A stretch of 64,000 bases of DNA from Candidatus Omnitrophota bacterium (GTDB taxonomy: Bacteria > Omnitrophota > Gorgyraeia > Zapsychrales > Fredricksoniimonadaceae), in NCBI GenBank assembly GCA_028865345.1, contig JAGWKL010000005.1, positions 21,577-85,576 on the forward strand, given 5' to 3'. The notes beneath the pieces were generated by a model that saw nothing but the letters and a program-made list of their open reading frames with translations, had not been told where the DNA came from and did no database searches. Each line of letters starts with the position of its first letter. The stretch's first letter is position 1. Below, in pieces: positions 7,960-54,904 of this stretch. The position numbers and the translations under genes are program-made.

Positions 7960-7995
7960 AGTAACCATTGGCCCAAGAAAGGAACAGGGAACCTT
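7960..7995 (-). repeat. Junction element copy 1 (reverse, degenerate)
   Basis: Minus strand AAGGTTCCCTGTTCCTTTC-TTGGGCCAA-TGGTTACT shares TTCCCTGTTCCTT exactly with copies at 11512 and 11570. Confidence 0.65.
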
Positions 7996-8611
7996 GCAAC
8001 CGTTTAAGACCCATACAGGTGTCGCGGCCCCCTTGGACCGCGTCAACGTCGACACCGACGCCATCATCCCTAAGCAATTTTTGAGGAAGATCGAAAAGGC
8101 CGGTTTCGGCAGGCATCTTTTCCATGAATGGCGCTATAGCGACTATGAAGGCACCAAGGAGAACCCGGATTTCGTTTTAAATCAAGGGCCCTTTCGCAAA
8201 GCCACGGTGCTTTTGGCCAGGGACAATTTCGGCTGCGGTTCCAGCCGCGAGCATGCGCCCTGGGCGTTGGCCGATTTCGGGTTTAAAGTGATCATCGCTC
8301 CGTCTTTCGCGGATATTTTTTATAACAATTGCGTCAAGAACGGCATTTTGCTGGCGCGCTTGAAATCCCAGGAAGTTGATGAGATATTTGCCTTTGCCGC
8401 GAAAAACGAGGGGGGCGCGGTCAGCGCGGATCTGCCGTCCCAGACCGTCACGGCAGGAGGCAGGGTTTACAAATTTCCCATGGATGCCTTTAATAAGGAA
8501 TGCCTGCTCAAAGGCCTGGACGCTATCGGCTGGACAATGCAATTCAAGGACAATATCTCGGACTACGAAAATAAAATGAAATCCGAGCGTCCGTGGATCT
8601 CGAGGGTTTAA
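7994..8611 (+). CDS. leuD: 3-isopropylmalate dehydratase small subunit
   Basis: [31 protein letters not shown] start. Confidence 0.98.
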
Positions 8612-8613
8612 AA

Positions 8614-10290
8614 ATGTCTGATATCAGAAAGTTCTCCCGTTTGGTTGTCGACGGCAATGACCGCGCACCCAACCGGTCCATGCTGCGCGCCACCGGGTTC
8701 AAGGATGAGGATTTTGGCAAAGCCCAAATCGGCGTGGTTTCCACCTGGAGCATGCTCACCCCCTGCAACATGCACATTGATAAATTGGCCGCCAAGGCGG
8801 TGGAGGGGGTTGACGCCGCCGGCGGCAAGGGCATCATTTTCGGCACCATCACCGTGGCCGACGGCATTTCCATGGGCACCGAGGGCATGAAGTATTCCCT
8901 GGTTTCCCGCGAGGTGATCGCGGATTCCGTGGAAACGGTCGCCGGATGCGAAGGCTTCGACGGGCTGGTGGCCGTGGGCGGCTGCGACAAGAACATGCCC
9001 GGTTGTGTGATCGCCATGGCCCGCCTGAACCGTCCGTCGGTGTTTGTTTATGGCGGCACCATTTTGCCCGGCTGCCTGCATGGACAGAACCTGGACATCG
9101 TTTCCGTATTTGAAGCGGTTGGCAAACATGCCGCCCGGAAAATTTCCGACCAGGAATTAAAAGATATCGAAAGCTGCGCCATACCGGGTCCCGGTTCATG
9201 CGGGGGGATGTACACGGCCAATACCATGGCCAGCGCCATCGAGGCTCTGGGCATGAGTCTTCCCAACAGCTCCATGCAAATTGCCGTGTCCCGGGAGAAA
9301 CAATTGGATTGTTTTAATGCCGGCGCCGCCGTCCTGGATTTATTGAAACGGAATCTCAGGCCCCGCGACATCATGACCAAAAAAGCTTTTGAAAATGCCA
9401 TTTGCGTGGTCACCGCCTTGGGCGGATCGACGAATGCCGTTTTGCATCTCATGGCCATTGCCCATGCGGCAGGCGTCAAATTAAACCTCGATGATTTCAC
9501 CCGCGTGAGCAAAAAAGTTCCGGTGTTGGCCGACCTTAAGCCCAGCGGCCGTTTTGTAACGGCGGAATTGGCGGCCATCGGCGGGCTTTTGCCGTTGATG
9601 AAAATGCTTTTGGACAAAGGCCTGTTGCACGGCGAGTGCATGACCGTGACAGGAAAAACCATGCGTGCCAATTTAGCTGATGTCAAACCATACCCCGCGG
9701 GCCAAGAGATCATCAGGCCGTTGGATAACCCCATTAAGAAGGAAGGCCATCTGGTCATTTTATATGGTAATCTTGCTCCTGAGGGTTCGGTAGCCAAGAT
9801 CACCGGCAAGGAAGGGTTGTCTTTCAGCGGGCGGGCCAAGGTTTTTGATTCGGAAGAAAAGGCGCTCAAAGCCATATTAGGCGGCAAAATTGTCAAGGGG
9901 GATGTGGTAGTGGTCCGCTATGAAGGCCCCCGCGGCGGTCCCGGCATGCGCGAGATGCTTTCTCCCACATCGGCCATTGCGGGCCGGGGACTCGGCAAGG
10001 ATGTCGCCTTGATCACCGACGGGCGGTTTTCCGGAGGTTCACACGGTTTTGTGGTAGGGCACATCACGCCCGAGGCTTTTAACGGCGGGCTTTTGGGTAT
10101 CGTCAAAAACGGCGATACCATCACCATTGACGCCGTCAAAAGGCAGATCGATCTTCTCCTCCCTGCGGCGGAAATCAAGAAGCGCCAAAAAGCCTGGGAA
10201 GCGCCAAAACCAAAATATACCCGCGGTGTCTTGGCCAAGTACGCTAAATTGGTCACCAGCGCCTCCAGTGGTGCAGTGACGGACAAATAA
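8614..10290 (+). CDS. ilvD: Dihydroxy-acid dehydratase
   Basis: [50 protein letters not shown]. Confidence 0.98.
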
Positions 10291-10293
10291 CTT

Positions 10294-52563: not shown

Positions 52564-52609
52564 ATTATAAACGGATTCATCAAAAGGCTTGTTTGCCGAC
52601 GAGGACCAT

Positions 52610-53659
52610 ATGTACGAAAAAGAGCTGGAATATCCGGTTAAGACCGTTCGTGCCGGTGTTTGGGGTGTCAGCGGATATACCGGCCGCGAAGTTTTTTCGC
52701 TGCTTTTGAAACACCGGGGCGTGAGGGTGACCTATGTGGCCGCCAACAACACCCAAGGGCCTTTGCCTGAAATTTTTCAGGAATTCCTGAACCGTACGAC
52801 CCTGGTTTGCCGCCCATTCAGCGTCAAGAAAACCGCGAAAAGGTGTGACGTGGTTTTCTTGGCCTTGCCGCACACTCAGTCCATGGCGGTGGTGCCGAAG
52901 TTATTAAAAGCGGGCTTAAAGGTCATTGACTTAAGCGCAGACTACAGGCTTAAAAGCCCCGAGGTTTATGAACAGTGGTATGGGCACAAACATGACGATA
53001 TAAGGAATCTAAGCAAGGCCGTTTACGGTCTGCCGGAGTTGTTTCGTCAGAAAATAAAAGGGGCCGTCTTTGTGGCCAATCCGGGCTGCTACCCTACGGC
53101 GGCCGTTTTGGGGCTGGCGCCGTTGATCGCCACTGCCAAGGACATTTTGTCCATCGTCGTGGACGCCAAATCAGGGGTTTCCGGCGCCGGACGTAAGGCC
53201 GCGGTGGAAAAGCTTTTCGGCGAGGTCAGTGAAAACTTCAAGGCGTATAAAGTGTTGAGCCATCAGCACGCGCCGGAAATCGAGCAATATTGTTCTCAAT
53301 TGGCCGGCAGGGAAACACCCATTCATTTTGTGGCGCACCTGCTTCCCATCACGCGGGGCATTTTAAATACGATGTATGTGCATTTAAAAGAGGGCATTGC
53401 TTTAAATCAACTGTACAATCTTTATAAGAAATTTTATAAGATCGAGCCTTTTGTGCGCGTCCATCCGTTGGGAAGCCAGCCGGAGGTCAAGAGTGTGGCC
53501 AATACCAATTTCTGCGATATCGGTTTGGCGGTAAGCCCAGACAAGAAGATGGTGGTCATTACGTCGGCCATTGATAATTTGGTCAAAGGCGCCGCCGGAC
53601 AGGCGGTACAAAACATGAATTTGATGCTGGGATTTAATGAAACTGAAGGATTGTTATGA
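52610..53659 (+). CDS. argC: N-acetyl-gamma-glutamyl-phosphate reductase
   Basis: GVSGYTG, DLSADYRL, ANPGCYPT, SGVSGAG, DNLVKGAAGQA. Confidence 0.97.
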   Translation: MYEKELEYPVKTVRAGVWGVSGYTGREVFSLLLKHRGVRVTYVAANNTQGPLPEIFQEFLNRTTLVCRPFSVKKTAKRCDVVFLALPHTQSMAVVPKLLKAGLKVIDLSADYRLKSPEVYEQWYGHKHDDIRNLSKAVYGLPELFRQKIKGAVFVANPGCYPTAAVLGLAPLIATAKDILSIVVDAKSGVSGAGRKAAVEKLFGEVSENFKAYKVLSHQHAPEIEQYCSQLAGRETPIHFVAHLLPITRGILNTMYVHLKEGIALNQLYNLYKKFYKIEPFVRVHPLGSQPEVKSVANTNFCDIGLAVSPDKKMVVITSAIDNLVKGAAGQAVQNMNLMLGFNETEGLL

Positions 53660-53721
53660 AGATGACTCGAGGCGGGGTAACGGCAGCTAAAGGGTTTTTG
53701 GCCAACGGGGTATCGGCAGGC
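53656..53721 (+). pseudogene. Orphan 5' stub of argJ (22 codons); ORF reads through the element to TAA at 53775
   Basis: MKMTRGGVTAAKGFLANGVSAG vs functional MKIIKGGVCTPKGFLANGVSSG (15/22 aa); ATGA overlap with argC stop. Confidence 0.9.
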
Positions 53722-53761
53722 AATATTCCCTATTGCTTCGAATTCGTAAGGGGTTCTGCAT
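53722..53761 (+). repeat. Junction element copy 6
   Basis: AATATTCCCTATTGCTTCGAATTCGTAAGGGGTTCTGCAT; palindrome CGAATTCG. Confidence 0.85.
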
Positions 53762-54904
53762 ATGAAAATTATTAAGGGCGGAGTTTGTACTCCTAAAGGT
53801 TTCTTGGCCAATGGTGTGTCATCAGGTATCAAACGGTCAGGGAAGCTGGATTTAGGCGTCATTGTTTCCGAAGTGCCCGCTGTTGTGGCCGGGGTGTTTA
53901 CCAAAAGTTCCATCAAGGCAGCGCCTCTCATCGTCAGCATGAAGCATATCAAAAAAGGCTCTGGAAGGGCGGTGGTGGCCAATTCCGGCAACGCCAATTG
54001 TTTTACCGGTCCCGCCGGGTTAAGGTATGCGCAGGGAACGGCGGAAGCGGTGGCCGGGTTTCTTGGCGTCGGACCCGCGGATGTTTTGGTGACATCCACA
54101 GGGATCATTGGTAAGACCCTGCCTTACAATAAGATCATCGACGCGCTGCCGGCTTTGCTCAAGGGTGTCGGCTCCAAAGGCGGCGGTAATTTCGCCAGGG
54201 CCATCATGACGACGGATTTGAAGGTCAAGGAATGCGCTGTTTCGCTTGTGATCGGAGGCAAAAAAGTCTCCGTCGGCGGCTGCGCCAAAGGTTCCGGGAT
54301 GATCGAACCCAATATGGCCACCATGCTCGGGTTTATCACTACGGACGCATCGATCTCTTTAAAGATGTTGAAGCTGGCTTTAAAGCGCGCCACGGAGCGT
54401 TCGTTCAACAGCATTACCGTCGATGGGTGCATGAGCACCAATGATATGGTCACCGTGCAGGCCAATGGGCTGGCCGCCAACACAAAAATCACGGCACAAG
54501 GGGCTGATTTCAAGAAGTTTTACGGGGCGCTCGAATTTGTCTGCGTCGATTTGGCCAAGCAGATCGTACTCGACGGGGAAGGCGCCACCAAATTTATAGC
54601 GGTCCATGTCAAGGGCGCGGCGGATGGTCCCCAAGCCCGTACAATAGCCAAAACCATCGCCAATTCACCCTTAGTCAAGACTGCGGCTTTCGGCAGCAAC
54701 CCTAATTGGGGGCGGGTGGCTGCGGCCGTGGGTTCCTTGGGGATCGCCCGGATCAACGAGAACAGCGTGAAGATCACTTTTTCCCCCTTTGACAAAAAGG
54801 AAATCAGCATTGGCGTCGAACTTTCGTTGGGACGTGCCGAAGCCACGGTTTACACCTGCGATCTTTCGCTCGAGTATGTGCGGATCAACGGGGAGTACAA
54901 TTGA
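53762..54904 (+). CDS. argJ: Bifunctional ornithine acetyltransferase ArgJ
   Basis: NSGNANC, STGIIG, KGSGMIEPNMATML, STND, DGEGATK, NWGR. Confidence 0.97.
   Translation: MKIIKGGVCTPKGFLANGVSSGIKRSGKLDLGVIVSEVPAVVAGVFTKSSIKAAPLIVSMKHIKKGSGRAVVANSGNANCFTGPAGLRYAQGTAEAVAGFLGVGPADVLVTSTGIIGKTLPYNKIIDALPALLKGVGSKGGGNFARAIMTTDLKVKECAVSLVIGGKKVSVGGCAKGSGMIEPNMATMLGFITTDASISLKMLKLALKRATERSFNSITVDGCMSTNDMVTVQANGLAANTKITAQGADFKKFYGALEFVCVDLAKQIVLDGEGATKFIAVHVKGAADGPQARTIAKTIANSPLVKTAAFGSNPNWGRVAAAVGSLGIARINENSVKITFSPFDKKEISIGVELSLGRAEATVYTCDLSLEYVRINGEYN

Follow-up and report, generated by a model that had tools for sequence, protein, structure and literature searches.

Here we report a polar mobile element of about 37 nt, found by profile search in eight copies in a 64,000-nt stretch of DNA from a Candidatus Omnitrophota bacterium (assembly GCA_028865345.1, contig JAGWKL010000005.1, positions 21,577 to 85,576) and in about 70 copies in the genome. 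This stretch is called the window, and coordinates without a contig name are positions within it. An insert consists of the element together with 0-100 nt of the flank downstream of it, placed mainly between an A and a T. A flank made up of a gene end comes from a diverged relative and joins the same gene in frame, exactly at the homologous base. We hold it to be somewhat more probable than not that this is a non-autonomous, genus-restricted element with one fixed and one loose end, whose captured downstream flank guides in-register insertion in related species. An initial annotation, made from the letters of the window alone, had proposed a polar element, moved in trans, that inserts near gene ends and brings a replacement terminus. 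That proposal is supported and its observation is confirmed and extended; its interpretation was right in outline and wrong on two points, scars left by lost cargo and a conserved palindrome.

The conserved part of the element is a 16-nt head, A(T/A)A(TT/GG)CCC(T/A)(A/G)TT(C/G/T)CTT, which exists in two linked forms, ATATTCCC and AAAGGCCC. The second form accounts for 123 of the 298 pooled copies. The tail is only loosely conserved, and the 298 pooled copies comprise 295 different 37-mers. With a profile derived from the genome, 70 copies scored at least 17; the reversed genome yielded 2 such matches, and two triplet-shuffled genomes yielded 9 and 2. Metagenome copies came from among the matches listed for a search pattern with fixed CGNAA and were excluded from positional and pairing statistics; of the 80 long metagenome loci, 18 that had little similarity to the proteins of this genome were dropped, as was locus L128, and 44 short metagenome loci were taken in unfiltered. 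All six copies of the initial annotation were located where it had placed them, although one host A preceding the element had been wrongly taken in, and two further copies, 25155-25183(-) and 45326-45362(-), had been overlooked. Its consensus is matched exactly by four window copies (0.21 expected by chance) and does not cover the aroC copy, which has the AAAGGCCC head, or the degenerate leuD copy. No conserved palindrome or hairpin was recovered: among ten tested base pairs only one exceeded column shuffling across 163 copies, and mutual information gave no stem. A fixed unit is apparent from GTCA^T ends, which fall at +37 in 20 of 294 copies and mark this position as the natural far end of the element.

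Replacement of gene ends was measured by comparing the two sides of each copy. An in-frame duplicate anchored at the junction was present in 47 of 284 pooled copies, a few element tandems included, and in 4 of 284 when the flanks were swapped. In the genome itself, 13 of 70 copies had flank duplicates scoring at least 15, a level reached by 1.5% of random sites. Among 31 hand-picked coding events the polarity rule of the initial annotation, by which sense elements duplicate the 5' end and antisense elements the 3' end, held throughout, 18 sense inserts giving a start codon and 13 antisense inserts a stop. The initial annotation was incomplete in this respect: a long replacement accompanies only about one-sixth of the copies, and the others occupy start codons or REP-like repeats. 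Insert lengths cluster between 37 and 141 bp, and the 5' ends of tRNA-Arg genes are targets as well. One gene for a 76-aa hydrophobic protein, presumably related to ATP synthase subunit c, carries an insertion in one metagenome locus and in three of the nine genomes in which its start is readable; these events involve both heads and two junction positions, their replacements are as diverged as ordinary alleles, and the locus in genome G006 contains a run of N.

The stub and the replacement differ in the manner of alleles. In the 31 curated events, 199 of 264 changed codons were synonymous, and in a set picked on DNA similarity alone the count was 146 of 182. These figures bear on a rival explanation, in which a miniature inverted-repeat transposable element (MITE) makes an in-place target-site duplication of 15-100 nt whose copies then diverge. 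Some pairs are nearly identical, as it would expect (96/97 in L073; 23/23 at tRNA-Arg), and 17 of 298 pooled copies stand in tandem arrays; we read such pairs and arrays as the same-species version of the event. A decaying stub, however, predicts mostly non-synonymous change, which the second set contradicts with only 36 non-synonymous codons, and it is the stub and not the working copy that resembles the host lineage (aroC identity to the nearest relative, G010, 0.86 and 0.78, respectively). The element further differs from a MITE in having a convergent inverted partner within 150 nt in just 13 of 298 copies and in a duplication length that is not fixed (0 to 97 nt). We regard in-place duplication as decidedly improbable, and the duplicates are better described, as the initial annotation had it, as homologous alleles rather than slippage copies. 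Separately, inverted element pairs were seen embedded at fixed positions of larger multi-copy repeats (L069-L074, L091, L103, L108, L112; G000 C51:4779-4839).

Base composition indicates which of the two alleles came from elsewhere. The GC content at third codon positions (GC3) averaged 0.33 in replacements, 0.46 in stubs and 0.50 in the next five codons (p=0.001), reaching 0.57-0.62 farther on; event by event, the stub was richer in GC than the replacement in just 14 of 25. Since GC3 rises back past the junction, the foreign tract stops there. Judged from sequence, the replacement is the foreign part and comes from a diverged relative.

Both ends of the insert are exact. In 39 duplicates recognizable at the DNA level, homology ends at the first base of the element 36 times and a base sooner 4 times. 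The left junction comes directly after an A in 36 of these duplicates and the right junction directly before a T in 35, and G is common two bases on, which gives the target consensus YA^T(T/C/A)G(C/A). This target, and the exact register of the two junctions, had escaped the initial annotation. The two junctions fall at the same homologous base, and in 17 of 31 events stub and replacement first differ 0-1 nt away from the junction, so neither an identity block nor an identical anchor is needed. An ATN codon is split by the junction in all 18 sense events, where 68% would be expected from the motif, as if donor and target both needed the A^T site. A Campbell-type crossover inside the flank is not favoured, given that the last 9 nt still show the GC-to-AT polarity (28 vs 19); single events such as aroC may have arisen in that way.

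The number of available sites argues for guidance. The genome holds about 56,900 motif-like targets, of which about 6,000 lie outside open reading frames (ORFs), so blind insertion followed by selection would yield roughly one restoring event per thousands of insertions. Restoring events make up about one-sixth of the copies, which is too many for blind insertion, and we infer that the captured flank guides the choice of site. In the mechanism we propose, a strand-transfer enzyme supplied in trans, most likely a HUH-type single-strand transposase or a relaxase, would cut at the head and would normally end the unit at about +37, often overrunning to a later A^T and thereby capturing a gene or tRNA end. 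The incoming DNA would pair through its captured flank with the homologous gene end of the recipient, which would set the register, and the enzyme would exchange strands at the registered base. The old terminus would be left as a stub while the gene is rebuilt behind the element, and selection would then retain only gene-sparing copies, those in gene ends, start codons and repeats. Natural transformation is proposed as the simplest route of entry; comEC and dprA are present. A modest C-to-T excess on the element strand (45/84 vs 17/51, p=0.03), which presumes that the stub is ancestral, fits a single-stranded phase. It is conceivable, at somewhat short of even chances, that these inserts represent a novel kind of minimal mobile DNA, directed to its target by the host sequence it last captured, an enzyme acting in trans performing an in-register, mismatch-tolerant exchange between a captured flank of 20-100 nt and its homologue in another species.

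The main rival dispenses with a dedicated strand-transfer enzyme. In a hot-ended form of homology-facilitated illegitimate recombination, an Ssn-like GIY-YIG nuclease would nick incoming single-stranded DNA 5' of the element, RecA would pair the flank, and host ligation or flap trimming would complete the joint. SsnA of Neisseria cuts single-stranded DNA a few nucleotides upstream of its own polar repeat, NTS, and acts in transformation (PMC11893778). Ssn-like genes flanked by GTCAT-type repeats occur in the genus, one of them in this genome; such NTS-like repeats are a frequent landing site of the element, 15 copies lying at their GTCA^TT, and competence genes are present. If branch migration ran against mismatched donor DNA, it could cut the tract back as far as the junction. 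Yet the element lacks an NTS-type palindrome and is not the flanking repeat of any Ssn gene, the single neighbouring copy being a secondary insertion, and the accessible text of PMC11893778 describes no insertion activity for Ssn. Homology-facilitated illegitimate recombination itself shares with our inserts one homology-guided side, DNA from other species and competent hosts; it has, in the accessible part of PMC3240628, no defined element end or target motif, and its illegitimate joining takes place at the free end and is rare in E. coli, whereas here the element end is exact, the junctions are in register, and the free end shows an A^T preference and is precise in 36 of 39 cases. Mismatches, moreover, sit right at the junction. 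We consider this alternative unlikely.

A second rival sees in each insert the remnant of a larger integrative element, a phage or island, whose cargo has since been lost and which had carried its own replacement terminus. A gene entered by such an island survives through the replacement end that the island brings, and the old end is left as a stub. Insertions into genes such as prfC (SXT) and guaA are known (PMC8138268), and the tRNA islands of this genome duplicate tRNA 5' halves. Those islands, however, show no element at their junctions, and integrative islands have one integrase per site and kilobases of cargo; neither was found here, where about 70 unrelated sites in one genome, among them dozens of unrelated genes, carry inserts of 37-141 bp. 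Unlike an island or prophage, the inserts have no identity block at the crossover. No distant partner junction for the inserts was found in the genome, clustering of neighbouring ORFs revealed no cargo family beside the copies, and the unit in REP-like repeats is fixed at 37 nt, all of which tells against the scars of lost cargo suggested by the initial annotation. Three pattern scans of IMG/VR returned six matches, none seen with a duplicated flank, and no convincing viral carrier. We regard an island origin as highly improbable.

A third rival, target-primed reverse transcription of an RNA that ends at the head, with re-annealing through the homologous flank, would also produce one exact end and in-register joining. 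It requires antisense RNA in the 18 sense events, and an Rfam search of positions 7000-13000 gave no match; reverse transcriptase (RT) genes occur in 5 of 17 genus genomes, none of them in this genome and none bounded by the element. We find it very hard to credit.

Several points weigh against guided insertion by a trans-acting enzyme. Searches for Y1, Y2, IS110, serine and tyrosine recombinases, RT and GIY-YIG, relaxase families not being searched, turned up no enzyme gene that adjoins a copy or has the element as its end. HUH enzymes usually need a hairpin, and none is conserved. Covariation between the target and a guide inside the element is absent in 42 long events (94 matches vs 93.8 when shuffled) and weak in all 63 events (p=0.035), where it is driven by repeated REP targets; internal guide pairing had looked promising in one copy and was rejected by permutation. 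The A^T rule has exceptions in C^T, T^T and G^T. The copy at 25155-25183 replaced host bases beside a 6-nt likeness to the head and looks like microhomology joining. Events across related genomes are not all independent, and the pairs compared, at best 76-84% identical, included no same-species pair of empty and filled sites.

Searches for the enzyme covered this genome and its genus. This genome gave no match to Y1, RT, IS110 or resolvase, the last being searched only here. The element was not the end of any of 20 Y1 loci taken from the 35 genus Y1 matches listed, nor of 20 non-Xer tyrosine-recombinase regions examined among about 75 matches, four IS110-like loci in 17 genomes or seven RT loci. 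The search for Y2, the gene of IS91, gave no match in 17 genus genomes and detected none of 14 controls either.

Against described systems, the element may be said to behave most like IS91 one-ended transposition combined with the homology targeting of homology-facilitated illegitimate recombination and with the outcome of gene-restoring islands, while departing from each in its defining traits. In the IS91 family (HUH Y2; PMC13181058), one end is fixed and the other is leaky and captures adjacent DNA; the target preference is short, the far-end cut site resembles the target, and there is no true target-site duplication. The fixed end, variable far end and flank capture are shared; the element differs in its length of 37 nt, in its A^T target in place of CTTG/GTTC, and in that its captured flank selects the homologous site, which is not the case for IS91 in that text. 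With IS200/IS605 and REP/RAYT systems (HUH Y1; accessible part of PMC3597680) it has in common polarity, a short target and a probable single-strand phase; the linker lengths of 15-16 and 8 nt given there are not reproduced, and hairpin and guide covariation are missing. An IS200-like end in G001 matches one head variant at 17 of 18 nt; this lead (L154) was abandoned, the insertion sequence being present in 2 of 63 family genomes and the end of its second copy being less similar. No Y1 gene is bounded by the element in the 20 loci mentioned. The target of Helitrons is A^T. They also resemble the element in an essential leading end, a dispensable trailing end and downstream capture, and differ in being eukaryotic, in their hairpin terminator and, in the accessible part of PMC5876387, in showing no homology targeting. 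An IS110-family MITE would share the CA core common to the REP insertions, and the four IS110-like matches in 17 genomes have no such end. Integron attC sites have RYYYAAC...GTTRRRY ends and a crossover at G^TT; unlike these, the element has no AAC box at its head and its junction is A^T. A full-text literature search, which most subscription papers lay outside, returned no description of the element or the polarity rule, and the accessible portions of two Omnitrophota preprints (10.64898/2026.06.07.730766 and 10.64898/2026.05.20.726742) do not mention it.

Mobile DNA directed by its last captured sequence, if that is what these inserts are, would be a natural DNA-guided precise inserter. The element explains how mobile DNA can colonise the gene-dense genomes of host-dependent bacteria while sparing essential genes, and it moves gene starts, stops and ribosome-binding sites across species. 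Should targeting work as we infer, an enzyme that inserts DNA at a base picked by a short, 75-80% identical flank would be relevant to transposon biology and genome engineering. With a defined 16-nt head, an A^T target and some 300 natural junctions to work from, the question can be tested directly.

Gene-end replacements at four genes of the window illustrate these events. At aroC, the native first 79 nt persist as a dead stub (10294..10372, +; 86% identical to G010, GC3 17/25), followed by an element with an AAAGG head (10373..10409, +), which provides a ribosome-binding-like stretch ahead of the new ATG, and by the replacement 5' end, a foreign allele (10410..10488, +; GC3 6/25), with the next host T at 10489; the insert measures 116 bp, and 13 of 15 changed codons are synonymous. 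The SDR gene received two insertions at the identical base: a 25-nt native 5' stub (11488..11512, +), an ATATT-headed element (11513..11545, +), a first replacement start (11546..11570, +) that the second insertion made into a stub, a second ATATT-headed element (11571..11603, +) and the working replacement start (11604..11628, +). At argJ, the native first 67 nt (53656..53722, +) overlap the argC stop and precede an ATATT-headed element (53723..53761, +) and the replacement 5' end (53762..53828, +; GC3 6/21 vs 11/20 in the stub). Identity between stub and replacement is 66/81 nt for aroC, 46/68 for argJ and 25/31 for the second SDR unit. In the 2Fe-2S ferredoxin gene, the antisense case, an ATATT-headed element (36120..36154, +) separates a dead 14-nt 3' stub (36106..36119, -) from the replacement 3' end with its stop codon (36155..36168, -); the stub taken alone is weak and within the null (score 8), but the 50-nt block is missing there in all three relatives shown. 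The aroC and argJ stub frames (10294-10412 and 53656-53775) continue through the element, and that of argJ stops shortly past the new start, so coupled translation is possible and the stub may be coupled to the replacement start. NCBIfam cut-offs were passed by leuC, leuD, ilvD, aroC, argC and argJ, while SDR, 2Fe-2S ferredoxin and moaE fell below them.

Start codons form a second class of landing site. In 48 of 285 copies (background 1.9%) the element lies antisense and its first base forms a TTG that opens a long frame, relatives carrying ATG at such positions. The degenerate leuD copy (7960..7994, -) is such a case, its first base being the T of the TTG start of leuD (7994-8611); G010 has a copy at the equal position, and ATG is found there in five of six other relatives shown. 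The degenerate copy at 45326..45362 (-) lies where another SDR-like gene (ORF 45329-46102) begins, and the ATG of the relatives is lost there. A different situation holds for the AAAGG-headed copy at 25155..25183 (-), which lies in frame inside the 3' end of a 2085-aa ORF (19060-25317), within a conserved C-terminal motif of a protein with PEP-synthase-like stretches, and exchanges about six codons for ten; a giant protein on a metagenome contig (L184:3001-3027) shows the identical replacement. The third class comprises the 15 copies in REP-like repeats, with units of 34-39 nt, 11 of them of 37 nt. As for the repeats themselves, IS200-like elements stand directly behind GTCAT-type repeats, one of them in tandem (L155, L156, L167), and Ssn-like GIY-YIG genes are flanked within this one genus by at least four different GTCAT-tagged repeat families (L334, L336, L339, L345, L347, L350, L351, L353, L354, L356).

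The element is confined to a narrow lineage of uncultured bacteria of groundwater type. The exact pattern occurs in 15 of 16 congeneric genomes and in 1 of 14 others, the latter being the control level; among 300 genomes of the phylum several copies were found only in G168, of a sister genus (four), and eleven others had one each, similar to the reversed control. Named records matching the motif numbered 42, mainly scattered single matches, and five were Omnitrophota. Filled sites are lineage-specific: in ten relatives and in G006, aroC lacks the element and has just one start, and the argJ insert is missing in all 13 relatives shown, by exactly 106 bp in nine of them. Placement is not random, as 9 of 64 strong genome matches lie deep within ORFs, where 81% of random positions would fall, and at least one of the nine (C39:29528) resembles a chance match. 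A strain-chimeric assembly was rejected on the evidence of contigs from two studies that cross the junctions, those of aroC and SDR in runs X1 (study P1), X2 and X6 (study P2) with 1-8 differences and that of leuD in X1 and X2; one run may be the window's own source. A regulator-binding site was likewise rejected, the copies being lineage-specific inserts, and no match to a known insertion-sequence end emerged that explains the pattern.

Other inserts occupy the slot ahead of aroC too. G002, G001 and G016 have small foreign genes there and G005 has the dead 3' remnant of one, in each case with no element (L008, L009, L016, L017). The slot between aroC and SDR, occupied in this genome by two element copies, holds in G006 and G007 (L012, L020) a different short inverted repeat that resembles the repeats flanking RAYT-type Y1 genes. 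The RT genes of L431 and L432 (G008, G004) adjoin a four-helix-bundle gene, which we take to be Avd-like, and probably belong to diversity-generating retroelements. Tyrosine integrases with N-terminal CxxC pairs were observed directly upstream of tRNA 5' ends (G000 C59:11610 with C1:36966-38249; C48:14036 with C50:2870-4170), and the small gene pairs beside them are presumably nucleotidyltransferase/HEPN-like. The 5' tRNA halves of these loci sit on other contigs, and these loci resemble islands whose insertion replaces the 5' half of a tRNA.

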